Positions 1 through 29,222 of a DNA stretch of 32,675 bases are shown piece by piece. The DNA is from Escherichia phage pro147. The DNA lies in sequence record NC_028896.1. One strand, written 5' to 3'. Position 1 is the stretch's first letter; every line of letters begins with the position of its first letter. The notes below the pieces were generated by a model. It was given only the letters and a program-made list of their open reading frames with translations. It did not search any database and was not told the origin of the DNA. Both the position numbers and the translations under genes were made by a program.

Positions 1-13
1 GTCAGTTATTGGT
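1..13. repeat. Left copy of 13-bp terminal direct repeat gtcagttattggt; candidate prophage att core (attL/attR)
   Basis: Identical 13-mer at 1-13 and 32663-32675, flanking a complete P2-like gene set with the integrase adjacent to the right copy. The repeat may extend beyond the window. Confidence 0.55.
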
Positions 14-87
14 GACATTTTTTGATATCTAATCACATGAAATAAAAGGATTTATTTCTAGTCACGTCCACACATTGACCACATCGA

Positions 88-121
88 CAAAAAAGCCCCC
101 TCGACTGAGGGGGCTTTCTGT
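88..121. terminator. Intrinsic terminator hairpin downstream of ogr (bidirectional)
   Basis: Perfect 9-bp stem agccccctc (94-102) / gagggggct (107-115) with 4-nt loop gact. An A-run precedes it on the plus strand (a T-run on the minus strand after the stem) and ttctgttt follows on the plus strand. Confidence 0.7.
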
Positions 122-127
122 TTGTAA

Positions 128-346
128 TTACATCCACATAATTTGCTGCCCTGACGGCAATGGGTGCGGCCTTACGGCGCGGACTTCTCCCGGCTTGACG
201 ATGTATCGCTGTACCGACTCATAAGTGATGAACGTGGCACTACAATTCACGTTCTGGCACTGATGATAACGCTCTTTTGTCGTGTCAGTGATATAGCGGC
301 TTGTACGCGCATGTGCGGCATGCTGGCATAAAGGACAATGAAACAT
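128..346 (-). CDS. ogr: Late transcription activator Ogr (C4 zinc-finger), 72 aa
   Basis: Translation MFHCPLCQHAAHARTSRYITDTTKERYHQCQNVNCSATF... matches P2 Ogr as recalled. The internal ATG at 344-346 is preceded by AAGAGGTG (strong SD); the track ORF 128-409 carries a 21-aa N-terminal extension judged spurious. Confidence 0.9.
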   Translation of the reverse strand: MFHCPLCQHAAHARTSRYITDTTKERYHQCQNVNCSATFITYESVQRYIVKPGEVRAVRPHPLPSGQQIMWM

Positions 347-427
347 CGCGAGCACCTCTTCCGGTTTGGTTGATGGTGCCATTTTAGTTAAATTATCCTT
401 ATAAAACAAACAGATAAAATAAAAACA

Positions 428-1591
428 TCACTCATCATCTTCTGTTTCGTACTCCACATCAGAAAGCCTGACCTCAAGCTCCAGGGACGTCGTGAAGCCG
501 CTATTATTCAGAAAATGTGTCACCTTAGTGATTGTCCAGTCCTGCTCGTCTATGACGCGCTTAAAGCCTGACACTTTAACCGGTGTTTCCGTGTAAATAT
601 CTGCCCGACCGGTAGCCAGGCTGATGGAGAACTCCGCAACGCCCCGTTGCAGTTTATCCCACTTCGCCTGAGCGGCGCGCATGGCCTGCGCTTTCGTGGC
701 ATATACCGTGGTCAGGGCAAAAACATTGTCAGCCTCACCGGCCATATATTCACCTTCGCGCGCTTCCGGTACTTTTGGCTCTTTCTTCTGCCTGACCGGT
801 TTCGCTTTCGGGTGCTCCAGTGCGCGCAGGTGTTTTTCTTTCTTTTTGCGTTTCAGTTTTACCTTCTGCTTTTGCGGCTTCGGGTCTTTGGTGTGTAACC
901 ACTTTGCCGTTACGCCGGTATAGGCTCCACGGTCAGCAATCGCAAAATGATGACGGTCGCCGTCGCTGCGGGTGATGGTAATCTGCGGGATTTTTTTACC
1001 GCTGGCCGTCACCCCCTGCCCCGCTTTGAGAAACAGCAGTTTTCCCATTTTTACCGACACCTCACTGCCGTTGCGTTCAGCAAGACGGGTCAGGAATTTC
1101 GCATCAGACTCCTGCGACTGGTCGATGTGCGGGATTTTAATTCCTGCCAGTGACGGCGCGACACTGGCTTCCAGCCTGTTACGGGAGGCTATCGCCTCAA
1201 CAATCGCACCGAGCGTGGTGTCATGCCATGAGCCTTCCCGGCGGGAATTGAGCGTCCCGCGAAAATCTGCACTCCGGGCACGGATGGTGACCACATCCGG
1301 CGCGCCCCGGTGTTCAACCTCATCAACGGTAAATTTCCCTTTGCATACCAGGGCAAAACCTTTCCAGCCGATATACACCGTCAGGACAGCGCCACGAACC
1401 GGCAGCCCGACCTGCCCGTCGGCATCGTTCAGTTCAATATCAAGCTGGTCAGCCTCAAAGCCCCGGTTATCCGTCAGGGTCATGCTCATCAGACGGTCAC
1501 TGATATTGCCGGTAATATCTCTGCTGTCGAGCATCAGCATGTAATCCGGCGTCAGCGTACTGCCTGCATCAAATGTCAGCGTATCCAGCAT
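428..1591 (-). CDS. D: Tail protein D (late control gene D), 387 aa
   Basis: 387-aa ORF in the P2 gpD position between ogr and U; length identical to recalled P2 gpD; GC-rich backbone. Confidence 0.9.
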   Translation of the reverse strand: MLDTLTFDAGSTLTPDYMLMLDSRDITGNISDRLMSMTLTDNRGFEADQLDIELNDADGQVGLPVRGAVLTVYIGWKGFALVCKGKFTVDEVEHRGAPDVVTIRARSADFRGTLNSRREGSWHDTTLGAIVEAIASRNRLEASVAPSLAGIKIPHIDQSQESDAKFLTRLAERNGSEVSVKMGKLLFLKAGQGVTASGKKIPQITITRSDGDRHHFAIADRGAYTGVTAKWLHTKDPKPQKQKVKLKRKKKEKHLRALEHPKAKPVRQKKEPKVPEAREGEYMAGEADNVFALTTVYATKAQAMRAAQAKWDKLQRGVAEFSISLATGRADIYTETPVKVSGFKRVIDEQDWTITKVTHFLNNSGFTTSLELEVRLSDVEYETEDDE

Positions 1592-2070
1592 TATCCCGCC
1601 CCCGTCATACCCGTGAATTTAGTTGCCATACTGCCCGCCTTACCGATGAGCGATTCCGCCTGTTTACCGATATCGCCATAAAGCGCGGCCAGTGATTCAT
1701 CAACGCGGGTAAGTGACAGCGTAAAATCAATTTTCCGGGGTGTGCCGTCTGCAAAGAAAATACTCCCTGTTTCACTCACCCTGCTGATGACATACATGCC
1801 GTAAATCATGCCGGTGCCATCCAGCAACGGCCACGCCCGGCCTTCCTCTGCCATCAGCCTGAGCGTGGTCATCGTCAGCTTTCCGCCGGTCAGTTCGGGA
1901 TAAAGCACACCGGCAAGCGTGATGTTTTCCTCGCCAACACCGAGAAACTGAAAGGCATCCCGTTTACCGATACGGGAATTTGACGGCCAGCGATAATCTG
2001 ATTCACGCTGCATGGTCTGGTGTGGCAGCGTCTGGCGCATAAAAACAAACATACCTAACGCGAGCATCAT
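1591..2070 (-). CDS. U: Tail protein U, 159 aa
   Basis: 159-aa ORF, 1-nt overlap with D; position and length match P2 gpU. Confidence 0.9.
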   Translation of the reverse strand: MMLALGMFVFMRQTLPHQTMQRESDYRWPSNSRIGKRDAFQFLGVGEENITLAGVLYPELTGGKLTMTTLRLMAEEGRAWPLLDGTGMIYGMYVISRVSETGSIFFADGTPRKIDFTLSLTRVDESLAALYGDIGKQAESLIGKAGSMATKFTGMTGAG

Positions 2071-2084
2071 TTTTCGTCACCTCC

Positions 2085-4532
2085 TTAACCGTCATGCATC
2101 ATGCTGGCACGGGCGCGCGCACGTTTATCCCGCTCGTATTTTTCGAGCGCATCCTGTAACTGGCGGTCGAGCTGTGTCCCCGGCGCAGTACCACCCGTCA
2201 GGCTGATGTGATATTCGTTTTTACTCTGGTCCACATAAGAGCGGCCAGCCGGTGCCGTGACCGGCTGATAAGCCTGATAGCCTGCATAAGAGCTGGTCGC
2301 CGGAATATAACCACCGGTGCCATACGTGGCGGCATGAGTTCTGGCGGCGGTCTGGTCAAGTGTGTCTGACTCTTTGTTGATAACACCGAGTTTTTCCAGT
2401 ACCCAGTCAATACCGCTGCGCAGTTTGTTGAACGCATTAAGCGGCAGCATCAGCGCGTCAGCCAGTGCCTGCCCGAACATGACGCCCGTGTCACGGCAAC
2501 GGTTCAGGGTGTCCTGGGTGGCTTTAACCGGAGCAATCAGGTTTGTAAACCACTGCCACGCGGCCTGTAACTTTTCGCCCAGCCAGTCAAACATCGGTTT
2601 CAGTGGCGTGAACAGTTCCCCCACCGACGCAAAGGCCGCTTTCAGCCCTTCCACCACACCGCCAAAGAATGCGCTGACAGGCTCCCAGTATTTACGGATA
2701 AGCAACGCCCCGGCGACAATGGCAGCCACCACGGCCACAACCGGCCAGCTAATCGCCCCGATGGCCGTCATAACGGCACTACCAACCGTCGTGAAGATTG
2801 CCCCCATTGCGCCTGCTGCCGCGATGATGGCATTGATGCCGGTGATAACCGGCCAGGCTATGAGGCCAATGGCACCGATGACACCAGTCAGCGCCAGTGC
2901 ACCACCGACAATGATGCCGATGGTTGACGCCAGTGATTTGTTTTTCTGTATCCAGCCGTCGAGTTTTAACACATACTTTGTGGCCGTCTGCGTGAGATTA
3001 CGCAGTGCGCCTTCCTGTTGGTCAAACAGGTCAGTCCCCACCGCCTCATAAGCGGACTGAAACTCCTTAAAGTCACCGCCGAGGTTATCCTGCATGATAT
3101 TTACCAGCTCGGCGGTCTTCCCGTCTGAGGCTTTAAACGCAGCGGTCAGTTTGTCCAGCTTTCCGGTTGAGGCGGCAGTCATCAGCACGGCGGCGGCTGA
3201 GCTGGCCTCCTCCCCGAAAATAGTTTTCATGTATTCAGCCTGCTGGGCAGTACCGAGCCGGTTTTTCTCAAAACTGGCCTGCATTTCTTTCAGAATGGTA
3301 AATATTGGCCGGGTGTTTCCCTTGCTGTCTGAGGTTTTCACTCCAAGCTCTTTGAGTGCATCCCATGCTTTTCCCGTCGGTGCCTGCAGGCGGCTTAACA
3401 CGGCACGGCTTCCCGTCCCCGCCATTGAGCCTGTGATTTTTGCATCATGCAGCCCCCCGACCATTGCGGCGGTTTCTTCAATGCTGACACCGGCATTTTT
3501 TGCCACAGGTGCGGCATAGGTCAGCGCATCGCTCATGCCGTCAAAATCGGCGGCGGTTTTGTTCATCGTCATGGAGAGAACATCCCCGATATGAGCGACC
3601 TTATCGTTTGAAAGCTGAAAGGCGGATTTCATCCCCATCAGCAGGGCGGCGTTTTCTTCCATCGTGCGGCGGTTCGCCAGCGCCATATTCAGCGTGACCG
3701 GCGTTGCCGCCTGAATGGCATCAACATCCCCACCCGCTTTCGCGATGATTATCTGTGCACCGGCCGCATCATCCGCCGAGGCTGCGGTATTGTCACCGAG
3801 CTGGCGCGCCTGTTTGCGTAGTGCGGTCATTTCGGCGGAGTCTTTTGCCACTCCGAGCACGGCCTGCAATTCTGAGTTTTTCTGCGCAAACTCATAACCG
3901 GGCATCAGCAGCTTAACTCCGGCCATCGTTCCCGCCGCCGCAATCCCCACACCGGCAGCGCCCACCGAGGCCATATTTCCGGCCAGTTCCTTTCCGGCCT
4001 GATAACGCTGTTTGACTGCGTTAAGTTTTGCCTGTTGCGCACTGACACGCGCCAGCGCATCACGCTGACGGTTAAGCTGTGCGGTGGTTTCACTGATACG
4101 GTTTTTCAGTCCCTGCTCATCATGTGCAAGATTGCGGGTATTAATTCCCACAGCGGCCAGTTCCCGCTGCTGGCGTTTAACGGAATCCGTCAGGCGGTTA
4201 TATTTCGCCTGTAAGTCCTCCGCCGCACGCTTTGCGGATTCCAGCACTTTCGCCTGAGCACGGGTCGGACGTTCGGTGTTTTTAAACTGTGTGGCAAGGG
4301 CTTCGGCTTCCTGCCGAGCCTTTTCAAGTGCATGACCAGTCACGGCGAGCTGTGCACTGGTCTTGCGGAATCCCTCAATACGGGATGCGTGACCGTTCAG
4401 CTCGCGCAGTGATTTTTGTGTTTCCCGGATATCCCCCGACAGCGACTTGCTCGCTGTGCGGATGGATTTAAACGGGCGGGATGCCTGGTCAACAGCCCTG
4501 AGCAATACCTGTAATTTTACATTGTTACTCAT
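2085..4532 (-). CDS. T: Tail tape measure protein T, 815 aa
   Basis: 815-aa ORF with coiled-coil-like N-terminus and hydrophobic Ala/Gly-rich central segments typical of tape measure proteins; position between E/E' and U. Confidence 0.9.
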   Translation of the reverse strand: MSNNVKLQVLLRAVDQASRPFKSIRTASKSLSGDIRETQKSLRELNGHASRIEGFRKTSAQLAVTGHALEKARQEAEALATQFKNTERPTRAQAKVLESAKRAAEDLQAKYNRLTDSVKRQQRELAAVGINTRNLAHDEQGLKNRISETTAQLNRQRDALARVSAQQAKLNAVKQRYQAGKELAGNMASVGAAGVGIAAAGTMAGVKLLMPGYEFAQKNSELQAVLGVAKDSAEMTALRKQARQLGDNTAASADDAAGAQIIIAKAGGDVDAIQAATPVTLNMALANRRTMEENAALLMGMKSAFQLSNDKVAHIGDVLSMTMNKTAADFDGMSDALTYAAPVAKNAGVSIEETAAMVGGLHDAKITGSMAGTGSRAVLSRLQAPTGKAWDALKELGVKTSDSKGNTRPIFTILKEMQASFEKNRLGTAQQAEYMKTIFGEEASSAAAVLMTAASTGKLDKLTAAFKASDGKTAELVNIMQDNLGGDFKEFQSAYEAVGTDLFDQQEGALRNLTQTATKYVLKLDGWIQKNKSLASTIGIIVGGALALTGVIGAIGLIAWPVITGINAIIAAAGAMGAIFTTVGSAVMTAIGAISWPVVAVVAAIVAGALLIRKYWEPVSAFFGGVVEGLKAAFASVGELFTPLKPMFDWLGEKLQAAWQWFTNLIAPVKATQDTLNRCRDTGVMFGQALADALMLPLNAFNKLRSGIDWVLEKLGVINKESDTLDQTAARTHAATYGTGGYIPATSSYAGYQAYQPVTAPAGRSYVDQSKNEYHISLTGGTAPGTQLDRQLQDALEKYERDKRARARASMMHDG

Positions 4533-4952
4533 TCGTGTTTCCGCTTCGCCGGAGCGCCTTTTCGCGCCATGTGATGAGTTCGGTCAGGCTCATGGGATAC
4601 AGTTCTGATGGCGGCCAGTGAAATATCACTGCCACATCCGCCATCAGGTCATCGACCGAGAGATTTTTCGGGAACGTCACTGCACCGAGTTCGGCGACAA
4701 AAAACCGACCACCTTACCGGCCAGCGCCACAAGGTCAGGCAGTTCCAGCGCGGCGACTTCCTGCTCGGTCAGCATCGGTGCCGTCATGCGCGGCAGCACT
4801 TTAATCAGTGCATCGACTTCGGAGTTTGCGACCGCAGCCAGACTGACACCGCGCAGCGTCCCCGCACTGGGTTTCATCAGCGTGACCTGTTCGATAACCT
4901 GCTCACCACGCTTGACCGGATTGGTCAGGGTAATCACATTTTCTTTGTTCAT
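4525..4952 (-). CDS. E': Tail assembly chaperone E+E' fusion produced by -1 programmed ribosomal frameshift (about 142 aa)
   Basis: Manual translation of the -1 frame after the TTTTTTG slip site gives VAELGAVTFPKNLSVDDLMADVAVIFHWPPSELYPMSLTELITWREKALRRSGNTNE, then TAA at 4525-4527 overlapping the T start codon. Total 85+57 = 142 aa, the size recalled for P2 E+E'. Confidence 0.75.
4677..4952 (-). CDS. E: Tail assembly chaperone E, 91 aa
   Basis: 91-aa ORF immediately upstream of T; ends ...GFLSPNSVQ with the slippery heptamer T TTT TTG (minus-strand sense of 4698-4704) near its 3' end. Confidence 0.88.
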   Translation of the reverse strand: MNKENVITLTNPVKRGEQVIEQVTLMKPSAGTLRGVSLAAVANSEVDALIKVLPRMTAPMLTEQEVAALELPDLVALAGKVVGFLSPNSVQ

Positions 4953-5008
4953 GGTTTTCTCACTTCTTAATCAGGGTTAACCGGTCAGCCAGGCTGACCG
5001 GATGAAAA

Positions 5009-5527
5009 TCACAGGCCGATATTGCGGCGGTGTTGCTCCAGCCGGTCGACGCCGTTCACCTTCTCAATCATGTTGATGGTGTCGATTTCGACCAGCTCCT
5101 TACCGTCCATCGTCAGCCGGAAATAGGTGCAGACCACGGAGATTTTCGACTCGGTGTCTTCTCCCTGTTTACCCTCGCCGGTGTCGATTTCTTTCTGACG
5201 TCCACGCATGACCACCTCGACGGCCACCGTTTCGCCGGTATCGTCGCGCTGGTAAGAGCCTGCAAAACGAATCGGCACGGCATCCACACCGGTTGCGGCG
5301 TAAAGCTCCCAGATAACCGAATCCGGGAAGCCACCCAGCGACCACTCCATTGACAGCGCATCGTCATCAAGGCCGAGGTCTACCGGTGCGCTGCCGTTCA
5401 TCCCCGCACCGCGATAGTTTTCGAGCTTACGGGTCAGTTTTGGCAGCGTGACGGACTTTGCAACGCCCTGATAGCTGTAGCCGTTCAGAAAGACGTTCAT
5501 TAACTTGAGTTTGCGCGGCATTGCCAT
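5009..5527 (-). CDS. FII: Tail tube protein FII, 172 aa
   Basis: 172-aa ORF directly downstream of the sheath gene; length and position match P2 gpFII. Confidence 0.9.
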   Translation of the reverse strand: MAMPRKLKLMNVFLNGYSYQGVAKSVTLPKLTRKLENYRGAGMNGSAPVDLGLDDDALSMEWSLGGFPDSVIWELYAATGVDAVPIRFAGSYQRDDTGETVAVEVVMRGRQKEIDTGEGKQGEDTESKISVVCTYFRLTMDGKELVEIDTINMIEKVNGVDRLEQHRRNIGL

Positions 5528-19196: not shown

Positions 19197-19369
19197 TGTC
19201 AGGAGTCCTGAATAGTGATTAGAGGAGTCACATGTCGGCATCAGTTTCCCGACGATACGCATCCTCCGCCATCAGTCCCGGATGGCTTATCACTGACACA
19301 ACAGCACCTTAGCGAATCGCGGGGCGCGACTCAGTAGCCTTGCCGTGTATTCATCACGGCGAGGTATTC
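19197..19369. promoter_or_regulatory. Divergent late promoter region between O and P (expected Ogr-dependent promoters)
   Basis: 173-bp intergenic region between the divergently transcribed scaffold and terminase genes. Assigned by synteny with P2; no confident Ogr box could be picked out by eye. Confidence 0.45.
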
Positions 19370-21142
19370 ATGACCATCACCACAGACACCACTCTTTTAC
19401 ACGACCCGCGTCGTCAGGCGGCGCTGCTGTACTGGCAGGGGTTTTCCGTGCCGCAGATTGCCGCCATGTTGCAGATGAAACGCCCGACGGTGCAGAGCTG
19501 GAAACAGCGCGACGGCTGGGACAGCGTTGCCCCCATCAGCCGTGTCGAAATGAGTCTGGAAGCGCGGCTGACCCAGCTCATCATCAAACCGCAGAAAACC
19601 GGCGGTGACTTCAAGGAAATTGACCTGCTGGGACGTCAGATTGAACGACTGGCACGGGTCAACCGCTACAGTCAGACCGGCAACGAGGCAGACCTTAATC
19701 CGAACGTCGCTAACCGCAACAAAGGCGGGCGTCGCAAACCGAAAAAGAATTTTTTCAGTGACGAGGCCATCGAAAAGCTGGAGCAGATTTTCTTTGAGCA
19801 GTCTTTCGAATATCAGTTGCACTGGTATCGCGCCGGGCTTGAGCACCGCATCCGCGATATCCTGAAATCCCGCCAGATTGGCGCGACGTTTTATTTTTCC
19901 CGCGAGGCGCTGCTGCGCGCCCTGAAAACCGGTCATAACCAGATTTTTCTGTCGGCCAGTAAAACGCAGGCGTATGTGTTCCGCGAATACATCATCGCCT
20001 TTGCCCGGCTGGTTGACGTTGACCTGACCGGTGACCCGATTGTCCTGGGCAATAACGGCGCAAAACTGATTTTTCTCGGCACCAACTCCAACACCGCACA
20101 GAGCCATAACGGCGACCTGTACGTCGACGAGATTTTCTGGATCCCGAATTTTCAGGTACTGCGTAAGGTGGCATCAGGTATGGCCTCACAGAGTCACCTG
20201 CGCTCGACCTATTTCTCCACCCCGTCCACGCTGGCGCACGACGCCTACCCGTTCTGGTCGGGTGAACTGTTCAACCGGGGACGCGCCAGCGCCGCCGAAC
20301 GCGTGGAAATCGACGTCAGTCATAACGCCCTTGCCGGAGGTCTTCTCTGTGCGGACGGCCAGTGGCGGCAGATTGTCACCATTGAGGACGCCCTGAAAGG
20401 CGGCTGCACGCTGTTCGACATTGAGCAGCTCAAACGTGAAAACAGCGCCGACGATTTTAAAAACCTGTTCATGTGTGAATTTGTTGACGACAAGGCGTCG
20501 GTGTTCCCGTTCGAGGAGCTGCAACGTTGCATGGTCGACACGCTGGAAGAATGGGAAGACTATGCGCCGTTTGCCGCAAATCCGTTCGGCTCCCGCCCGG
20601 TATGGATTGGTTACGACCCGTCACACCGTGGCGACAGCGCCGGATGCGTGGTACTGGCACCGCCGGTGGTGGCCGGTGGCAAATTCAGAATACTTGAGCG
20701 TCACCAGTGGAAAGGCATGGACTTTGCCACCCAGGCGGAATCCATCCGCAAACTCACCGAAAAATATAACGTTGAATACATCGGGATTGATGCCACCGGC
20801 CTCGGTGTCGGCGTGTTCCAGCTCGTGCGCTCGTTCTATCCCGCCGCGCGCGATATCCGCTACACGCCGGAAATGAAAACCGCAATGGTGCTCAAGGCAA
20901 AAGACGTTATCCGCCGTGGCTGTCTGGAATATGACGTCAGCGCCACCGACATCACCAGCTCGTTTATGGCTATCCGCAAGACCATGACCAGCAGCGGACG
21001 CAGCGCCACCTATGAGGCCAGCCGCAGCGAGGAAGCCAGCCACGCCGATCTCGCCTGGGCGACTATGCACGCCCTGTTAAATGAGCCACTCACCGCCGGT
21101 ATCAGCACCCCGCTGACATCCACCATTCTGGAGTTTTACTGA
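19370..21142 (+). CDS. P: Terminase ATPase (large) subunit P, 590 aa
   Basis: Translation from the ATG at 19370 (preceded by GAGGT) gives 590 aa starting MTITTDTTLLHDP...; divergent from O as in P2. Confidence 0.92.
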   Translation: MTITTDTTLLHDPRRQAALLYWQGFSVPQIAAMLQMKRPTVQSWKQRDGWDSVAPISRVEMSLEARLTQLIIKPQKTGGDFKEIDLLGRQIERLARVNRYSQTGNEADLNPNVANRNKGGRRKPKKNFFSDEAIEKLEQIFFEQSFEYQLHWYRAGLEHRIRDILKSRQIGATFYFSREALLRALKTGHNQIFLSASKTQAYVFREYIIAFARLVDVDLTGDPIVLGNNGAKLIFLGTNSNTAQSHNGDLYVDEIFWIPNFQVLRKVASGMASQSHLRSTYFSTPSTLAHDAYPFWSGELFNRGRASAAERVEIDVSHNALAGGLLCADGQWRQIVTIEDALKGGCTLFDIEQLKRENSADDFKNLFMCEFVDDKASVFPFEELQRCMVDTLEEWEDYAPFAANPFGSRPVWIGYDPSHRGDSAGCVVLAPPVVAGGKFRILERHQWKGMDFATQAESIRKLTEKYNVEYIGIDATGLGVGVFQLVRSFYPAARDIRYTPEMKTAMVLKAKDVIRRGCLEYDVSATDITSSFMAIRKTMTSSGRSATYEASRSEEASHADLAWATMHALLNEPLTAGISTPLTSTILEFY

Positions 21143-22161
21143 TGAGTAAGAAAAAAGGGAAAACACCGCAGCCAGCGGTGAAAACAATGACTGCCAGCGC
21201 CCCGAAAATGGAGGCATTCACCTTTGGTGAGCCGGTGCCGGTACTCGACCGCCGTGATATTCTGGATTACGTCGAGTGCATCAGTAACGGCAGATGGTAT
21301 GAGCCACCGGTCAGCTTTACCGGTCTGGCAAAAAGCCTGCGTGCTGCCGTGCATCACAGCTCACCGATTTACGTTAAACGCAATATTCTGGCTTCAACGT
21401 TTATCCCGCACCCGTGGCTGTCCCAGCAGGATTTCAGCCGCTTTGTGCTGGATTTTCTGGTGTTCGGTAATGCGTTTCTGGAAAAGCGTTACAGCACCAC
21501 CGGTAAGGTCATCAGACTGGAAACCTCACCGGCAAAATATACCCGCCGTGGCGTGGAGGAGGATGTTTACTGGTGGGTGCCGTCCTTCAACGAGCCGACA
21601 GCCTTCGCGCCCGGCTCCGTGTTTCACCTGCTGGAGCCGGATATCAATCAGGAGCTGTACGGCCTGCCGGAATATCTCAGCGCCCTTAACTCTGCCTGGC
21701 TGAATGAGTCGGCCACGCTGTTCCGCCGCAAGTATTACGAAAACGGCGCTCATGCCGGATACATCATGTATGTCACCGATGCCGTGCAGGATCGCAACGA
21801 TATCGAAATGCTTCGCGAAAACATGGTTAAGTCGAAAGGCCGCAACAACTTTAAAAACCTGTTTCTCTATGCCCCACAGGGGAAAGCCGACGGCATTAAA
21901 ATTATCCCCCTCAGTGAAGTGGCGACGAAGGACGATTTTTTTAATATCAAAAAAGTCAGCGCCGCAGATCTCCTGGACGCACACCGCATCCCCTTTCAGT
22001 TGATGGGCGGTAAGCCGGAGAATGTCGGGTCACTAGGAGATATTGAAAAAGTGGCAAAGGTCTTTGTCCGCAATGAACTCATTCCATTACAGGAGAGAAT
22101 AAAGTCAATAAATGAATGGTTAGATATGGAAGTAATAAAATTCCTTGATTATAACTTATAA
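21142..22161 (+). CDS. Q: Portal protein Q, 339 aa (3' end AT-rich and apparently remodelled)
   Basis: 339-aa ORF overlapping the P stop (TGATG); position matches P2 gpQ. The last ~25 codons (22081-22161) are abruptly AT-rich, continuous with the downstream cargo island. Confidence 0.88.
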   Translation: MSKKKGKTPQPAVKTMTASAPKMEAFTFGEPVPVLDRRDILDYVECISNGRWYEPPVSFTGLAKSLRAAVHHSSPIYVKRNILASTFIPHPWLSQQDFSRFVLDFLVFGNAFLEKRYSTTGKVIRLETSPAKYTRRGVEEDVYWWVPSFNEPTAFAPGSVFHLLEPDINQELYGLPEYLSALNSAWLNESATLFRRKYYENGAHAGYIMYVTDAVQDRNDIEMLRENMVKSKGRNNFKNLFLYAPQGKADGIKIIPLSEVATKDDFFNIKKVSAADLLDAHRIPFQLMGGKPENVGSLGDIEKVAKVFVRNELIPLQERIKSINEWLDMEVIKFLDYNL

Positions 22162-22173
22162 GTAAATATATAA

Positions 22174-22200
22174 AGTTGGCGGAATGCAATCCCGCCAACT
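22174..22200. terminator. Hairpin between convergent Q and the retron-operon effector gene
   Basis: Perfect 9-bp stem agttggcgg (22174-22182) / ccgccaact (22192-22200) with 9-nt loop, filling the 42-bp gap between two convergent stop codons. Confidence 0.6.
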
Positions 22201-22203
22201 TAA

Positions 22204-22911
22204 CTATATATACTTCCTTTTTACTCTACTTAATTCTATCACTGATGAGGAGTGACAAAATGACAAATTAATAGTATCGATATAATCCAAAATTTGACTC
22301 TCAACCTCAATAAAAATATTTTTGGGCCCATTACTAATCGATATACCGATTTCATCCAAAACAGCCATCATTTTTCTCTGATGAGTTTTATATTTATAGT
22401 CTTTATTTTCCTCTGTAATATGTGCATTGGCTTCCTCAATAACACATTTGATTCTAGATATTATTTCTAGATAATCTCTCGAAACAGATATATCACCGCC
22501 TTGCGCTTCAGGGAACATAACCCTATACCATCTAAAAAAATTAACTTTCTCTGGATAGATGCTACTTCTTTTAGTTAACTCAGCACTTGCAAATTCTCTA
22601 AACATCGTCAGATGACTAGTGTAATTACTATTATTATTATTTTTAACTCCAGCGTTATATGTCATCAAAGCAATCATAACACCAAAAACGGTAACAAAAG
22701 TTGTTATAAGCCATCCAAACGCCTGAAAATACATTACTATACCAGATGTTTTTTCCGCAAAAAATTTTAAGCACTGGCTATCGAAGCATATATCACGCTC
22801 ATATAGCTTTTCATTCTGAATAGTTTCAAAAAGAGAAATTAGCGAAAAAATCAAAAAAAGAGCTGACGACACACCGACAATATATTTGAGAAGTCTAATA
22901 TTTGCATTCAT
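22204..22911 (-). CDS. Putative retron effector: 235-aa protein with two N-terminal transmembrane helices
   Basis: AT-rich ORF overlapping the 3' end of the upstream reverse-transcriptase gene by 4 nt. Hydrophobic segments YIVGVSSALFLIFSLISLF and VMYFQAFGWLITTFVTVFGVMIALMTY, followed by a ~140-aa soluble C-terminal domain. Confidence 0.7.
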   Translation of the reverse strand: MNANIRLLKYIVGVSSALFLIFSLISLFETIQNEKLYERDICFDSQCLKFFAEKTSGIVMYFQAFGWLITTFVTVFGVMIALMTYNAGVKNNNNSNYTSHLTMFREFASAELTKRSSIYPEKVNFFRWYRVMFPEAQGGDISVSRDYLEIISRIKCVIEEANAHITEENKDYKYKTHQRKMMAVLDEIGISISNGPKNIFIEVESQILDYIDTINLSFCHSSSVIELSRVKRKYI

Positions 22912-24182
22912 AATGGTTTTAAAGATGCCAATCTAGATTTAAAACACTCCAGTTTTTCTTTAAATGATTCAGAGCGAGTAAGAATAATCATCTTATATCT
23001 CGTCAAATCATATTTTCTTTTATACCAATGTTTATTTTGATTACCTTTCGAATACGACAACTCTAAACTTTTTATAGCTGCATCAATCACAGCAACATCT
23101 CTTTTAGATGGCATCGGTTTTATTGCCTGCAACTGTTTCTTGAATGATTCATATTTTTCATGCGCAACACGGCCAAGCTTATTCACTCTCCCCATACATC
23201 TATTGAATTCTTTTCTGTATGCAACACTTGTTTTTGTGTTATTTTTTGCCGCCAGTAATTTCAAATTATGTATAGATGCCCTGATTCTTTTGACTTCATC
23301 GGATGGTAGTCGAGGTGAGTCATAGTCAACTCTTAAACCATGTACTTTTATAGGTTCAGATGAACAGTGAAATATTTTAGTTTTGCGCTTATTTATCGGC
23401 AAGTCATGCTCAGAAAGCATCCTCTCTATATGGCTTTGCATTTGAGAAAAATCATAATTACTTATTTTAGATGACACGGTAATATCATCTACCAAACGCG
23501 TATAAACAAGTCCTTTCCTCTGCGCACGTCTTACCACATCCCCTTCAACAGCGAATAAACACAAAGTTGCTATATAGCTTGATGTTAAGGCCCCCTGTAC
23601 GACAAAATCATCCTTAGTACATATATCCACCAAGTATTCAAGAGCCTCATCCTTAATATGCAATATCTCCTCAAACACGCTCCTAACCAGATCTCTATGG
23701 ATATTATCGAAAAAATTACTTATATCCACCTTGAGAACTGTTTTTGCTCCACAATGAGCCTTTGCACATGAAACATAGTCACGTTTGACATTAGAATTTA
23801 AAACATCATTTTTACTGGGAACTGAACCAAACAAAAATGAAGGAAAAACAACCAATTCCTTAAAGATACGTTTATTAATTCTACTCTGTAATAATCTCAT
23901 TTTAGGATGCAGGGAGTAGACAATCCGTTTGCTTCCGTCAATTTTGGGAATTTCTTTTAGAGTATATTTCTCATCTAATGGTAATTCTGCAATAGCTTTA
24001 AGCTCTTCAACAGAAATCGATAAAGCCTTTGACAACTTTTCAAGTGTTGTGATAGGAGCATTGGATTTGCTGTATGGTTTAAATTTATCCATAAACATAC
24101 CATTCAAATTCAAAGTTACGTACGGTCTTCCCATACTCAAGGGTGGAACAGCAGAGATGCTTACATCAACAATTGTCAGCAA
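22908..24182 (-). CDS. Retron-type reverse transcriptase (start uncertain: TTG 24182, ATG 24134 or ATG 24098)
   Basis: Translation shows the RT motifs ...CAKAHCGAKTVLKVDISNFFDNI..., ...QGALTSSYIATLCL..., ...YTRLVDDITV... (YxDD box) and a VHGL motif resembling the retron VTG signature. AT-rich; the TTG at 24180-24182 is preceded by AGAGG. Confidence 0.8.
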   Translation of the reverse strand: MLTIVDVSISAVPPLSMGRPYVTLNLNGMFMDKFKPYSKSNAPITTLEKLSKALSISVEELKAIAELPLDEKYTLKEIPKIDGSKRIVYSLHPKMRLLQSRINKRIFKELVVFPSFLFGSVPSKNDVLNSNVKRDYVSCAKAHCGAKTVLKVDISNFFDNIHRDLVRSVFEEILHIKDEALEYLVDICTKDDFVVQGALTSSYIATLCLFAVEGDVVRRAQRKGLVYTRLVDDITVSSKISNYDFSQMQSHIERMLSEHDLPINKRKTKIFHCSSEPIKVHGLRVDYDSPRLPSDEVKRIRASIHNLKLLAAKNNTKTSVAYRKEFNRCMGRVNKLGRVAHEKYESFKKQLQAIKPMPSKRDVAVIDAAIKSLELSYSKGNQNKHWYKRKYDLTRYKMIILTRSESFKEKLECFKSRLASLKPL

Positions 24183-24423
24183 CAGCCTCTGCTATCTTTC
24201 GACCGTACGTAATGTCGTCGGCTACGGCACCATCGTAGTTGACGACGGTGGGGCCTCGCTGATAGGTCCATAGTGGACGCTTTTTTGTAAAAGCAAAAAC
24301 TGACAATTTAATGTTGTTGACTGCCGCATACCAAGCGAATCGCTGGTGCGCTAAGAATAATGCAACAAAAAAATAAGAATTTCAACCGGGTAACTGCAAG
24401 CCAGCGACATCGTTTAGCGCGCA
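24183..24423 (-). ncRNA. Candidate retron non-coding RNA (msr/msd) in the structured leader upstream of the RT gene
   Basis: GC-rich non-coding stretch between cos and the RT with a nested hairpin gtcgtc-gg-ctacg-gcaccat-cgtag-tt-gacgac (24214-24246) and a 12-nt inverted repeat ttacgtacggtc (24116-24127) / gaccgtacgtaa (24201-24212). Exact msr/msd boundaries could not be determined. Confidence 0.3.
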
Positions 24424-24442
24424 GTGCTTTCCCCGCCTCGCC
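24424..24442 (-). other. cos: Phage cos site: 19-nt cohesive-end sequence GGCGAGGCGGGGAAAGCAC (minus-strand sense)
   Basis: Plus strand 24424-24442 reads gtgctttccccgcctcgcc, the reverse complement of the P2 cohesive end as recalled; followed by ...ctgcgcgct as at the P2 left end. Adjacent GC hairpin ccgccc (24442-24447) / gggcgg (24456-24461) plus tttt. Confidence 0.75.
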
Positions 24443-24648
24443 CGCCCGCTTCATGGGGCGGTTTTAATGCAGTAGCATGACCACTCAACTAGCGCGCCAG
24501 TCCTGATGTCGCCAGGCAGTTATTGTTCTCTGACTTGCGTGCGCTTCGATGCAGAGTAATGCACTTCCTGAATTGCTCGCATTCGCATCGTTATCATGAT
24601 AGAAAACAGGTAGTTATTTGTGCGCAACTTAAGAAGAAATCACTAATT

Positions 24649-26193
24649 ATGAAAAAGATTTATGAATTAACTACTGGTAGAGCGCTTAAGTATTTTCTGC
24701 AGCATGATTCATACACTACTCTGGAGCTACCCAGTTATGTCGATTTTTCTTCCTTGCTTGAAGAAATCAACTCCGCGATAGATGAAGGTAAAATCAACTT
24801 CCAACCTGACTCCAAGTCATTGATGGGGAAGAATATAAATTACGAGGTTTTAGTCAGCAAAGATGGCTTATATAGCTGGCGACGAATAACACTAATTAAT
24901 CCTCTGTACTACGTGTATTTTTGTAAACTTATTACATCCCCTTCCAACTGGAAGGCTATAAAGAATAAATTTAGAGAGTTTGAGTCTAATGATCTTTTTT
25001 TATGCTCAAGTACCCCAGTGAGCAAAAAGAACACCTCAAACGTAGCTGCATCTGTTTTAAACTGGTGGGAAGATTTTGAACAAAAAAGTCTTTCATTGGC
25101 TCTTGAGTATGAGTTCATGTTCAGCACAGATATTTCAAACTTCTACCCTTCTATTTACACTCATAGCTTTGAATGGGTATTCATCTCAAAAGAAGAGGCC
25201 AAAAAGAAAGAAAATAACAATAACCCAGGACGATTGATTGACACTCATATCCAGATGATGATGAGTAATCAGACAAACGGAATACCATTGGGTAGTACGT
25301 TGATGGATACATTTGCCGAATTAATTTTAGGCGAAATTGATTTACAGCTAAGAAAAAAAACTGAAGAGCAAAAAATAACGGATTACAAAGTAGTTCGCTA
25401 CAGAGATGATTATCGAATATTTTCAAGCAGTAAAGATGATTTGGACAAAATCTCAAAGTGTTTGGTTGAGGTCTTAGGTGAGTTTGGGCTTGATTTAAAC
25501 TCAAGAAAAACAGAACTACATGACGACATCATTCTTCACTCTCTTAAATCAGCAAAAAAAGAATATATTATAGAAAGGTCGTTCAACTCCCTACAGAAAA
25601 TGTTGTATGCAATATATTTATTTTCTTTAAAACATCAAAACTCCAAAATTACAGTTAGATATTTAAATGATTTCTTGCGAAAATTATTTAGGAAGAAAAA
25701 GATCACAAATAGTGGGCATCAACTAGATGCAATGCTTGGAATTATTTCAAGCATCATGGCTAAAAACCCAACCACCTACCCAGTGGGAATGGCTATTTTC
25801 GCAAAACTCTTGACCTTCCTTTATGACGACGATGAACTCAAATTTGGCAAGTTACAACAACTTCATTGTAAACTAGGTAAACAACCAAATACTGAAATGT
25901 TAGATATTTGGTTTCAACGAGTTCAAGGGAAGATACACACACAATGGGAAGGCGATTACAAAACAGCCCTATGTCAACGCATAAATGATGAACTCAAGGG
26001 AAAAAAAACATTTACCATTGATGGCCTGTGGGATGTAGAGTGGATTCCGGGCTCAGCCAAAAGTAAAAACAAACAGAAAATACTATCAATTTTGAAAAAA
26101 ACAAAAATTGTGGATTTAGATGCATTCGAAGAAATGGATAATGATATTACACCAGAAGAAGTGAACTTATTCGACAAGGAACACAGCGCTTAA
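24649..26193 (+). CDS. Abi-P2-like (Abi/UG-class) reverse transcriptase, single-gene anti-phage system, 514 aa (alternative start ATG 24559)
   Basis: AT-rich ORF in the tin/old cargo position. RT motifs ...FSTDISNFYPSIYTH..., ...NGIPLGSTLMDTFAEL..., ...VVRYRDDYRIFS..., followed by a long C-terminal extension with no recognisable effector domain. No adjacent partner gene. Confidence 0.75.
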   Translation: MKKIYELTTGRALKYFLQHDSYTTLELPSYVDFSSLLEEINSAIDEGKINFQPDSKSLMGKNINYEVLVSKDGLYSWRRITLINPLYYVYFCKLITSPSNWKAIKNKFREFESNDLFLCSSTPVSKKNTSNVAASVLNWWEDFEQKSLSLALEYEFMFSTDISNFYPSIYTHSFEWVFISKEEAKKKENNNNPGRLIDTHIQMMMSNQTNGIPLGSTLMDTFAELILGEIDLQLRKKTEEQKITDYKVVRYRDDYRIFSSSKDDLDKISKCLVEVLGEFGLDLNSRKTELHDDIILHSLKSAKKEYIIERSFNSLQKMLYAIYLFSLKHQNSKITVRYLNDFLRKLFRKKKITNSGHQLDAMLGIISSIMAKNPTTYPVGMAIFAKLLTFLYDDDELKFGKLQQLHCKLGKQPNTEMLDIWFQRVQGKIHTQWEGDYKTALCQRINDELKGKKTFTIDGLWDVEWIPGSAKSKNKQKILSILKKTKIVDLDAFEEMDNDITPEEVNLFDKEHSA

Positions 26194-26358: not shown

Positions 26359-26619
26359 TTATGGGCACGCGTGAAGGTAGAAATATGGACGGTTGGGATT
26401 ATTGATTTCTCCCATACGGCTGCAGTTATCACTGACGATCTCAGTCCCTCCGACCAACTCGTAGAGGGTCAGATTCTCTTTGACCATAATTTGTAAACAA
26501 TAGCCATCAGCCGCAGACTCTTGCACGAGTACAATGGCGGAACCGGACGCATAGCTAGTAATGTATGCATTAGTCATAATGACATGCTTCCAAAGCAAGA
26601 TCGCCACGCAGTTCCGCAT
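26359..26619 (-). CDS. Hypothetical 86-aa protein downstream of A (position of P2 orf91)
   Basis: ORF in the track only; sits where P2 carries orf91 but no sequence similarity could be verified from memory. Confidence 0.3.
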   Translation of the reverse strand: MRNCVAILLWKHVIMTNAYITSYASGSAIVLVQESAADGYCLQIMVKENLTLYELVGGTEIVSDNCSRMGEINNPNRPYFYLHACP

Positions 26620-26680: not shown

Positions 26681-28957
26681 TTATATGTTTGTTGAGAATC
26701 CCGGCCACTCATCAGCGACCGGATACGTGAATTTTTCCCCGTCATAATTTACGGTCGCGCCACGCGCCAGCGCCTCAAGCTCCCATCGCTGTGGCCTGAT
26801 ACCGTTCTGAGCAAGGTCAACGCGGATACGGGTAATTTGCATTCGTTCCGACCGGGTCAGTCTGGCCGATGGCGCTATTTCATGCGGTTTTAACGGGCTT
26901 CCGTTTCTTTGCTGACGGTTTGGTCTTCTCAGACCGTGTTTTAATGCACCTCTGAGCGCCCTCACGACCTCCTGGTCATTCCATTCGATAACACCGTCAT
27001 CTACCAGATTAAGCACTGCTGCGGCGTGCTCAGAAGGTGTGGGAGCCGGTAACGAAGTATCACCACCGGTGAGCTTTCCACAGTTATTGACAGGACTCCG
27101 AGGCGCGGCGATGCCGCTTTTTAAAGTCAAAGGCTCAACGACCAGCACTTTCGGAACAATGCGCCAGTCCGTCGTTCTGGTGATATGAATATGACGCGCG
27201 CCGAGATGCGGCGCGTAAATGCCGACCACTCTCTCGACTTCTTCCTCGTACTCGTTAACTTCATCCGACGGACTACGGGCGACCCTGACAGTCTGACAAT
27301 CGCGCGGGACATTTGCCCCACCCTGCGCGCTGATATACAGCGCAAAATCGCCACTGTCTGCGGCAGCGCGTGCAGCCTCGACGCGTTCGTCAAACTCATC
27401 AGCAATGCTGACGCCGCGAGGTAATTTGCGTAGTTCACGGTAAGCCCCCATTGTCGGCAGGCCAACCGTTTTAAATTGCGGAATGCGCCACGTTGACGCC
27501 CATGCGGTAACAGCCGCGGCAGTGTCTTTCAGCGGCCTGCCGGTATCGTTATCGAGCTGACCATCCAGTGCATAGCCGTCGATGTTTTTTGAAATGTATT
27601 TCGCGATATACCCCGCAGCACCGCCCCGGTTAAGGTGTTTTGCCTGAAAACGGTTTCGCGCGGCTCCTCTTTCGTCGCCATCCTCTTTGAGCGCATAGCG
27701 ACGCATGATTTCGATAATCTGGTTACGCTGGCGCGGATTACAAAAAAGCATCATATGCCAGTGCGGCGTTCCGTCGTGGTGTGGCTCGACGACACGCAAA
27801 CCGTAGACCTGTAAATCATTATCCTTGAATGCCGTGCGCATCAGGCTCCAGATACGGCAGAGATAACGCTGCGCATCCTTTGGATTAAATGCCTCATCGT
27901 TCCAGCCGTGATTTAGCTGGACGGTTTTACTTTCGCCTTTTCTGACCTGACGTGTCGGGTGATACTTTGACGGCGCGGTCAGCGTGATAAACATCCCCAC
28001 ATCACCCTCTGCTGCGGCGTAACGCTCAATACCGGCAATGGTGTTCATCAGCTCCATCCGGCGAATTTCAGGATTAGAAATACTGCCCATCACCTTACTG
28101 ATAAGGTCGATGCGCTCGCCGGTTTCCCTGTTTTCAAGGTCACACGATTTAAGAAATTCCAGATTTGCCTGGCGGCGCGCACGCACATCACGAATGGCAT
28201 GTTTACTGGCATAAGGAGAACGGTCTTTATTGACCTCCCCGACAGCTATCAGTAACGCCTCATGCCAGCGCATACGTTGGCCTTTAAGCTGATGAGTCCA
28301 CCACTCATCGTTAAACAGGCGGGCAATGGCAGAATATGCCTGCCTCGTGGTCATCTGTCCTTTACGGTATTTTTTCCAGTAGAGCGGGGAAATATTGAAA
28401 GCACGTGCAGCGCCAGCAACATGACCATAGAGGTGAGCCTGCGCCTCATCCGTAAACAGCGATTCTTTTTCGCCATGTGCATCAACCCAGGCATCGCAGA
28501 GTTCCTCATACATCATGAAAAGCTGCGATGAGATACGGGCAGCAAACTTTTTCAGCTCCTTGTCATTCATTCCCGGCAGGCGCGCATAGTGGTCACGCTC
28601 TGCCAGAAACAGCAACGACGCGTCGGTGTTCATTTCATGGCGCTGATTCACACGCTCAATGCGCGGCCATAAACGACGCTGAAAAGTGGATGTGAGGAAA
28701 TAAAACCCGTGCACCGGGCTTTTATTGCGCCGGATGTAGTCATAACGTGAAGTAAACAGCGAGCGCAAAAAGTAAGGCAGGCGGTTAATCGTGGATAAAA
28801 CACCTTGCACCTGACGCATCTCGTCACGTGTAAGGGGTCTTTCGCGCCCGACAGCCTCGCGTGGCGCGTTCCATGCATAAGCACCGGTAAACGTCTTACC
28901 GGTGCCTGCGGCAAATGCTGACGGAGGGACAAAACGCCCGGAGGCTTTAACGGCCAT
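26681..28957 (-). CDS. A: Replication initiation protein A (rolling-circle nickase), about 758 aa from ATG 28957
   Basis: Translation from MAVKASGRFVPPSAFAAGTGK... matches the recalled P2 gpA N-terminus. The track ORF starts 14 codons upstream at a TTG (28999). The last few codons lie at the boundary with the cargo island. Confidence 0.9.
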   Translation of the reverse strand: MAVKASGRFVPPSAFAAGTGKTFTGAYAWNAPREAVGRERPLTRDEMRQVQGVLSTINRLPYFLRSLFTSRYDYIRRNKSPVHGFYFLTSTFQRRLWPRIERVNQRHEMNTDASLLFLAERDHYARLPGMNDKELKKFAARISSQLFMMYEELCDAWVDAHGEKESLFTDEAQAHLYGHVAGAARAFNISPLYWKKYRKGQMTTRQAYSAIARLFNDEWWTHQLKGQRMRWHEALLIAVGEVNKDRSPYASKHAIRDVRARRQANLEFLKSCDLENRETGERIDLISKVMGSISNPEIRRMELMNTIAGIERYAAAEGDVGMFITLTAPSKYHPTRQVRKGESKTVQLNHGWNDEAFNPKDAQRYLCRIWSLMRTAFKDNDLQVYGLRVVEPHHDGTPHWHMMLFCNPRQRNQIIEIMRRYALKEDGDERGAARNRFQAKHLNRGGAAGYIAKYISKNIDGYALDGQLDNDTGRPLKDTAAAVTAWASTWRIPQFKTVGLPTMGAYRELRKLPRGVSIADEFDERVEAARAAADSGDFALYISAQGGANVPRDCQTVRVARSPSDEVNEYEEEVERVVGIYAPHLGARHIHITRTTDWRIVPKVLVVEPLTLKSGIAAPRSPVNNCGKLTGGDTSLPAPTPSEHAAAVLNLVDDGVIEWNDQEVVRALRGALKHGLRRPNRQQRNGSPLKPHEIAPSARLTRSERMQITRIRVDLAQNGIRPQRWELEALARGATVNYDGEKFTYPVADEWPGFSTNI

Positions 28958-29222
28958 ATGAGCCAAAAGCCTCTGAACAACGCCTGCTGAGTTGCTCAAC
29001 CTGCGCGTTTAAATCAGCAAAAGACTTTGCGCTTCCGGTCAGAATATCGTGATGCATCAGGCCGGAAACGAGCTGGCTTAATTTCGGGTAATAACCAACC
29101 ACCGCCAGCCATTCCTGACCGGCGTTTTTACCGCTTTCCGCTCTCTTTTTCTCGTGGAGAATAAACTGAAAGCTGTCACTGGTAACGACATAACGTTTGC
29201 CAATTTCAATACGAATGCTCAT
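28947..29222 (-). CDS. Early-operon hypothetical protein (P2 orf83 position), 91 aa
   Basis: ATG-initiated ORF immediately upstream of A, overlapping its start by 11 nt; syntenic with P2 orf83. Confidence 0.7.
   Translation of the reverse strand: MSIRIEIGKRYVVTSDSFQFILHEKKRAESGKNAGQEWLAVVGYYPKLSQLVSGLMHHDILTGSAKSFADLNAQVEQLSRRCSEAFGSYGR

Follow-up and report, generated by a model that had tools for sequence, protein, structure and literature searches.

The AT-rich end of portal gene Q in the P2-like prophage pro147 as the probable left recombination joint of a retron Ec48 cassette

The closest described counterparts of the locus reported here, the 3' end of portal gene Q and the adjoining retron Ec48 in Escherichia phage pro147 (NC_028896.1), are retrons Ec67 and Ec86 of 186-related prophages. 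According to excerpts of later papers, these retrons replace the DNA between cos and the packaging-gene terminator (Dodd & Egan 1996, via PMC5694545, PMC6868368, and PMC7826664). In P2-like phages, the gpA-gpQ interval beside cos is a known defence hotspot whose recorded systems include retrons (Odegrip 2006; Rousset et al. 2022, PMC9122126; NAR 2026, PMC13586616). Surveys report that P2-like phages swap their gpA-gpQ defence systems very quickly, and the survey of defence swapping in P2 and P4 contains no breakpoint analysis and leaves the mechanism open (PMC13586616). Extra genes between cosL and the gpQ homologue of P2-like phages are also on record, namely ctx of phiCTX and ORF1-4 of Ralstonia phage phiRSY1, and in excerpts of PMC5694545 this position is called a foreign-gene pick-up site. 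We analysed pro147 over its full length of 32,675 nt, which we call the window and to which all positions refer unless another genome is named. It is a P2-like prophage, and its gpA-Q interval, which holds cos and two defence systems recognised by PADLOC, is the variable cargo of this cos-adjacent hotspot.

The locus and the kind of cargo are the same as in the hotspot studies. However, those studies treat gpA-gpQ as one unit, whereas here the cos core splits it in two and one crossover would lie inside Q. The right junction adjoins cos, as the excerpts describe for Ec67 and Ec86. The left junction is different. Judged by the title of the original report, the Ec67 and Ec86 replacements end at the packaging-gene terminator, while the window has lost the terminator and the last ~20 portal codons and carries a homologous, recoded tail instead. 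A left junction at the native terminator is present in two other loci of our survey (L064 and L083; L numbers are our labels for the loci compared) and not in the window, where it lies inside Q at ~22100. The backbone differs as well, being of 186 type for Ec67 and Ec86 in the same excerpts and of P2 type in the window. For phiRSY1, the excerpts of PMC5694545 report the four extra open reading frames (ORFs) in one orientation and report no effect on the portal reading frame. In lambdoid and other temperate phages, mosaic joints likewise come from recombination that exchanges modules at short stretches of conserved sequence, and they lie at gene ends or slightly inside them. In the window, by contrast, the two anchors are identifiable, one being a conserved portal block and the other the cos core, and what hitch-hikes is the end of an essential structural gene. 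The retron itself is not different from those described. It has the same reverse transcriptase (RT) and two-transmembrane effector as retron Ec48/Retron-Eco6, type IV (Mao 1997; Mestre 2020, PMC7736814; Millman 2020), and the cargo is 99.7-100% identical to loci annotated in RefSeq as the retron Ec48 family; the novelty is its junction with the phage. Since the retron and its general position were already known, our finding refines the picture rather than discovers a new element. What we consider new is that the joint falls within the portal reading frame and brings a homologous, recoded tail, and that the two sides of cos assort independently, although an earlier description may exist in Dodd & Egan 1996 or Mao et al. 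1997.

We think it likely that an exchangeable defence cassette was acquired by homologous recombination, with crossovers in Q and at cos, and that the end of Q marks its left joint. In 100-nt windows, the G+C (GC) content is 0.46-0.53 at 21950-22099, drops to 0.29-0.34 at 22050-22199, and stays at 0.26-0.36 throughout the cargo. The first-pass annotation of the window, made from the sequence alone, had described the last ~25 codons of Q, from 22081, as AT-rich and continuous with the retron island. The drop is real, and a windowed plot of the kind it called for goes from ~0.5 to ~0.3 across 22000-22150, but the break is sharp at ~22096-22101 and affects 20-22 codons. The body of Q has a GC content of 0.526 and a GC content at third codon positions (GC3) of 0.63. 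For codons 318-339 these values are 0.24 and 0.27, and the GC3 of the effector and RT genes is 0.27 and 0.30, respectively. In a blastn comparison, the window is 95.7% identical to P2 (NC_001895) over 21142-22100 (P2 nt 1221-263), and nothing matches after 22100 until 24416-24442 (P2 nt 27-1). Similarity to P2 thus stops 61 nt 5' of the Q stop codon and inside the reading frame, in agreement with the earlier placement of the junction within the coding region. The word insertion, used there for the cargo, is imprecise, as P2 nt 28-262 are exchanged for 2315 bp. The P2 stretch that is lost comprises the last 25 Q codons, the annotated terminator tQ, and the spacer to cos.

The DNA divergence rises in steps toward the break. 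Measured against its closest match in a set of 74 P2-type Q genes, the window has 16 mismatches over the 780 nt upstream (2.1%); the 3' block of Q that precedes the tail has 11 in 120 nt and 7 in 60 nt (9-12%), and the last 60 nt of Q reach 55% mismatch (33-34 changes). The differences in the 3' block are mostly at third codon positions, and the protein is nearly unchanged there. Judged from these sequence comparisons, such steps are what would be expected of a tract from a diverged Q gene, not of a blunt illegitimate joint. The same 2.66-kb arrangement occurs at 99.7-100% identity in 57 of 5426 complete Escherichia coli genomes, which rules out a chimera or artefact of assembly, and the protein collection lists the exact 339-aa Q in 1767 blocks.

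The tail is homologous to other portal C-termini. The aligned ends are ...LQDRIREINGWLGQEVIRFKNYSLDTDND in P2 and ...LQERIKSINEWLDMEVIKFLDYNL in the window. By tblastn, Q as a whole is 96% identical to P2 gpQ or P2-type Q over its full 339 aa, and it matches Pfam PF04860 (Phage_portal) with 53 bits (cutoff 39.1, E 4e-14). When the last 27 aa were used alone as a tblastn query, 366 phage records were matched, and the matches listed fall in portal genes; the best were ENT4 (70% identity, E 1e-6), Fels-2 (72%), and P2 (63%). Compared with a profile of 40 tails taken from other portals, the 22 residues past the break reach 37.4 bits. As controls, 2000 shuffled versions of these residues score at most 10.3 bits, and 876 22-mers from the six frames of the island (652 of which were scored) at most 5.4 bits. 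The invariant or near-invariant family positions R319, N324, W326, I332, F334, Y337, and L339 are retained, N324, W326, F334, and Y337 being the invariant ones. The family C-terminal pattern L-x-P-L-Q-x-R-x-x-E-x-N-x-W-...-I-x-F-x-x-Y-x-L is present, and the sole departure is S at the nearly invariant E322. With its homology to the portal profile and its retron-like GC3, the tail is a true end of the portal and at the same time belongs to the AT-rich module. The first-pass annotation had proposed that island-derived sequence replaced the C-terminus, which we take to mean foreign, non-portal codons. The comparison that it had itself singled out, with related portals of phages lacking the insertion (P2, Fels-2, ENT4), gives a good alignment of the tail and contradicts this proposal. 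It was correct that Q is five codons shorter than in P2 (339 and 344 aa), but this is ordinary variation, since the acidic extension after Y-x-L spans 0 to 6 residues across the portal family and total lengths range from 336 to 348 aa. The portal is intact and presumably functional. The C-terminal tail is weakly constrained and keeps only the helix-like pattern R..x.N.W...xI.F..Y.L.

The tail and the retron have moved together between different backbones. In L203, from a food metagenome, the stretch corresponding to ~21712-24451 differs from the window at only 8 sites, while the upstream part of Q is ~95-96% identical and the AbiP2 side ~70% identical. L205 is ~95.7% identical to the window through 21921 and 100% identical from 21922, and the identity switch in L005 is earlier in Q than that in L205. 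L006, L007, and L172 have the retron module with other cargo beyond cos, which in L172 is a DUF2806 protein. The retron module is 97.6-99.9% identical in L203, L172, L006, and L007 while AbiP2 is only 70% identical (L203) or replaced, and the two sides of cos assort independently. In a search for the tail motif, eight of the nine hits in IMG/VR and all three hits in metagenomes are P2-type loci matching the window; the ninth in IMG/VR, L144, has a related tail and other cargo. The retron adjoins Q in every tail-motif locus from these two sources that is long enough to show it, and the Ec48 genes adjoin the exact Q protein in all 10 contexts shown. The simplest reading of these observations is homologous recombination between P2-like genomes, with crossovers in Q and at cos.

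The right junction points to the same process. The P2 19-nt cohesive-end sequence, GGCGAGGCGGGGAAAGCAC, has an exact copy in the window, and the junction is 8 bp from it. When P2, P4, and the window are aligned, their common core stops 7-8 bp beyond the 19-mer in the direction of Q, so the junction matches the edge of the cos core common to P2 and P4, and the right junctions of five cargo modules are all at this edge. This core corresponds to the 55-bp core of Ziermann & Calendar, as cited in PMC9594776 and PMC5694545. Transposition and site-specific insertion were dismissed, because no repeat of at least 7 nt, direct or inverted, is common to both junction zones and no recombinase family was matched in the cassette, whose two long ORFs are the Ec48 effector and RT according to PADLOC.

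We propose that the Q-cos interval of P2-like phages, ~170 bp long, would serve as a cargo bay between two conserved anchors. The first anchor would be the last conserved block of Q, encoding ...GDIEKVAKVFVRNELxPLQ, and the second the ~55-bp cos core common to P4. In the window the bay holds retron Ec48, with its non-coding region, RT, and effector transcribed toward Q. One crossover between P2-like genomes would have occurred inside Q and the other at cos. The hypervariable last ~20 codons of Q would hitch-hike with the cassette because they lie between the two anchors, and they would still show the AT-rich codon usage of the genome in which the cassette resided before. The hairpin after Q would supplant the native tQ and end both convergent transcription units. 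The left end of the virion DNA would be expected to read GGCGAGGCGGGGAAAGCAC-TGCGCGCT, followed by the retron. A P2-like phage of lower GC content would be the donor.

Several points weigh against this proposal. A scan for the tail motif at the DNA level in 185,579 species-representative genomes gave no hit to the strict pattern and 8 loose hits without similarity to Q, and the cassette is absent from the isolated phages in the INPHARED collection. The low-GC donor is therefore conjecture. A scan of metagenomes for the tail motif returned only further Ec48-type loci, and a protein search with the C-terminal 55 aa of Q alone matched nothing but short fragments of about that length, which pointed to no donor. 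Immediately 5' of the tail, the Q block differs from P2-type Q by only ~10%, against 15-30% for truly distant lineages; one crossover with such a donor thus does not account for everything, and a history of several steps would be needed. The activity of the prophage is judged only from its spread. The survey of other modules described below is a small and non-random sample. The structural role of the tail is uncertain as well. No solved structure is related to Q by sequence, and an AlphaFold model of Q built from 41 close homologues has a mean predicted local distance difference test score of 42, which is too poor for a fold search; only a C-terminal helix at residues 301-327 is predicted with moderate confidence.

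Cargo between Q and cos is the minority state. In the 80 IMG/VR loci most similar to this Q, cos usually lies 167-169 bp from the Q stop codon, and complete E. coli genomes have 1539 ordinary Q-cos intervals and 57 with Ec48. Among 11 Q-cos cargo modules, 9 have a private tail, usually AT-richer (Ec48, L012, L037, L106, L144, L206, L207, L209, and L210), and 2 keep the native tail and terminator (L064 and L083). The native 130 bp left of cos is lost in the modules examined. Five modules other than Ec48 are on the same P2-type Q body. L037 encodes PD-T4-4 and its tail is ...WLSAEVIQFKNYSLDDN; L012 has a PDC-S02-like gene and another gene, with the tail ...RFKDYSLESN; L206 has four genes and the tail ...DWLDEEIIKFKKYNLVD. 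L064, with a membrane protein, and L083, with a GmrSD_N/NsnA-like gene and a nucleotidyltransferase, are the two that keep the native tail and tQ. L144 and L106 belong to other lineages and have private tails with cargo. A 186-type lineage includes the cargo-free L212, with the common tail and a Q-cos distance of 176 bp, and its relatives L207, L209, and L210, with 1.7-2.8 kb of cargo, AT-richer deviant tails, and the same late rise in Q divergence. All of the Q-side cargo genes examined are convergent with Q (L012, L037, L064, L083, L144, L206, L207, L209, L210, and 22204-24182 of the window). Late read-through from P-Q would be antisense to the Q-cos cargo. The L206 locus (1-5198) is a degenerate P2-like remnant beside a giant BapA-like adhesin gene; its Q is split into pieces of 231 and 65 aa, and it still holds the four-gene cargo and the private portal tail.

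Divergence in place is an alternative to recombination. The native P2-type tail would never have been exchanged and would have drifted fast to AT-rich codons beside AT-rich cargo, which might be bound by H-NS. Portal tails are indeed hypervariable throughout the family, with a GC content of 0.40-0.48 against ~0.56 for the gene body, and no donor lineage was found in the scans described above. However, the changes in the last 60 nt stand beside a body that differs by only 2%, so that a local rate more than 25-fold higher with an abrupt edge would be required. The GC3 of the tail equals that of the cargo, and the tail is transferred with the retron between backbones together with ~180-450 nt of Q. 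Furthermore, the tails of three further modules with this P2-type Q body all differ, and their breakpoints do not fall at the same codon. We consider divergence in place quite unlikely.

It could also be argued that the private tail is adaptive and matched to its cassette, for example by tuning packaging at a cos without its native left flank, or by altering the recognition of the portal by host or prophage immunity. The frequency of private tails among the modules (9 of 11), the loss of the native left flank of cos in all of the nine, and the position of the tail, which is predicted to end a long C-terminal helix in a model that is weak overall, would all fit. On the other hand, L064 and L083 work with the native tail, and L064 and L144 have homologous cargo with different tail solutions. 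Ec48 is triggered when RecBCD is inhibited and not by the portal (bioRxiv 10.1101/2020.06.21.156273), and hitch-hiking explains the pattern without selection on the tail, which leaves a matched, adaptive tail quite improbable. Finally, an illegitimate insertion of the retron island that cut off the end of Q, so that translation runs into unrelated DNA and yields a non-portal C-terminus, would account for the sharp break in composition and DNA homology within the ORF, for the codon usage shared with the cargo, and for the shortfall relative to P2, but the tail's profile score far above both sets of controls, its portal matches and invariant positions, and a length inside the family range make this extremely unlikely.

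With recombination at Q and cos as the preferred explanation, the crossovers of the Q-side exchange can be placed concretely, in the final conserved block of the portal gene and in the cos core, and the end of an essential structural gene would hitch-hike with the cargo. The P2 portal would then tolerate the exchange of all of its last ~20 residues, and only ~8 bp on the Q side of the cohesive-end sequence is kept in the cargo-bearing prophages examined. Annotation pipelines should anticipate compositional breaks in intact portal genes and not call them truncations. It is possible, although less likely than not, that the hypervariability of the portal tail across P2-like phages is largely a by-product of the swapping of defence cargo in two bays separated by cos, each Q-side cargo bringing its private tail. 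If so, the tail type could mark the history of the cargo, and portals could swap their last ~20 residues freely. In a bolder version, for which we have no direct support, tails may be selected for packaging or for evading portal-sensing immunity.

A hairpin separates the convergent Q and effector genes, as the first-pass annotation had noted. Its arms (22173-22182 and 22192-22201) form 10 perfect pairs around a 9-nt loop, not the 9 bp at 22174-22200 given there. It lies in the 42-nt gap between the stop codon of Q (22159-22161) and that of the effector gene (22204-22206). The folding energy of the RNA is -21.1 kcal/mol (z -5.0) on the + strand and -26.4 kcal/mol (z -6.7) on the - strand, and none of 200 shuffles was as good on either strand. 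A terminator scan flagged it on the - strand. In P2, tQ is annotated at the equivalent place (P2 nt 160-181), and this native tQ is absent here. The hairpin is 100% conserved in L203. Its predicted folding suggests that it is probably a bidirectional terminator, stronger on the - strand. Among the loci read at the DNA level, a hairpin follows Q in the window, P2, L012, and L144. Some copies of the cassette carry a mobile element in the short space that separates the hairpin from the effector stop codon. L086 (4219-6797) has a 2.6-kb insert there, flanked by a 10-bp duplication of 22202-22211, and in the complete genome NZ_CM176598 RefSeq annotates an ISApl1-family transposase between the portal and RT genes.

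Table 1. Features of the window around portal gene Q, the retron, and cos.
Feature	Position	Strand	Remark	Basis
P2-like prophage (Escherichia phage pro147), the window				Gene order, cos, and cargo
Terminase gene P	19340-21142	+		ORF list, Pfam
Portal gene Q	21142-22161	+	339 aa, reading frame intact	ORF list; Pfam Phage_portal; tblastn
3' block of Q	21922-22100	+	Moderately diverged, moves with the cassette	Divergence from P2-type Q; identity switch in L205
AT-rich "private" portal tail	22101-22161	+	Codons 321-339 and stop; protein divergence begins at codon 318 (22093)	
Ec48-type portal tail sequence			ERIKSINEWLDMEVIKFLDYNL	
Hairpin between convergent Q and effector genes	22173-22201	.	10 perfect pairs	Folding, terminator scan
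Retron Ec48 effector	22204-22911	-	235 aa, two transmembrane helices	PADLOC, RefSeq, Pfam
Retron Ec48 RT	22908-24134	-	ORF extends to 24182; gene callers start at 24134 or 24091	
Retron non-coding region	24135-24415	-	Presumed promoter and msr-msd	Retron architecture
cos core	24416-24481	-	Right-hand cassette anchor; 19-nt cohesive-end sequence at 24424-24442	
AbiP2-type RT	24523-26193	+	gpA side of cos	PADLOC AbiP2, 532 bits
Replication gene A (gpA)	26681-28999	-		Pfam

The cargo on the Q side is retron Ec48. The effector matches PADLOC 2TM_IV with 283 bits and PF28197 (Retron_Ec48_antiviral), and RefSeq names it a retron Ec48 family effector membrane protein. The RT matches Pfam RVT_1 (E 5e-31) and PADLOC RT_IV (585 bits, E 1.4e-176), and the called genes encode 394 and 408 aa. 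The two genes overlap by 4 nt (22908-22911). Ec48 has been described as a guard of RecBCD, which is triggered by RecBCD inhibition and kills the cell via its membrane effector (bioRxiv 10.1101/2020.06.21.156273). Upstream of the RT gene there are a 12-nt perfect inverted repeat (24116-24127 and 24201-24212) and a 13-nt hairpin (24214-24246), which probably belong to the msr-msd RNA, and a promoter-like site lies on the - strand at 24385-24357. No Rfam family matched the retron non-coding RNA, and the layout of the repeat and hairpin did not match the textbook order a1-msr-msd-a2. An Ec48-like retron occurs at another prophage position in L180 (3489-3785 and 4992-6931), just 5' of a tail-sheath gene; its RT and effector are 76% and 67% identical, respectively. 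About 1.2 kb upstream of that RT gene, a 98-aa ORF preserves what is left of a portal C-terminus and shares 50% identity with Q 270-339.

Two unlike reverse-transcriptase defence systems thus flank cos in the window, retron Ec48 (22204-24182) toward Q and AbiP2 toward gpA. In the virion, where the DNA is linear, these systems would occupy opposite ends of the genome. At 24442-24461, a GC-rich hairpin followed by TTTTAATGCA was flagged by the terminator scan. Because it is inside the cos core conserved in P2, P4, and the prophage, it more probably belongs to the packaging signal than acts as a terminator. An 86-aa ORF on the - strand (26359-26619), located between AbiP2 and gene A, has no match in Pfam or PADLOC. 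Gene callers give products of 72-82 aa at this site in related prophages.

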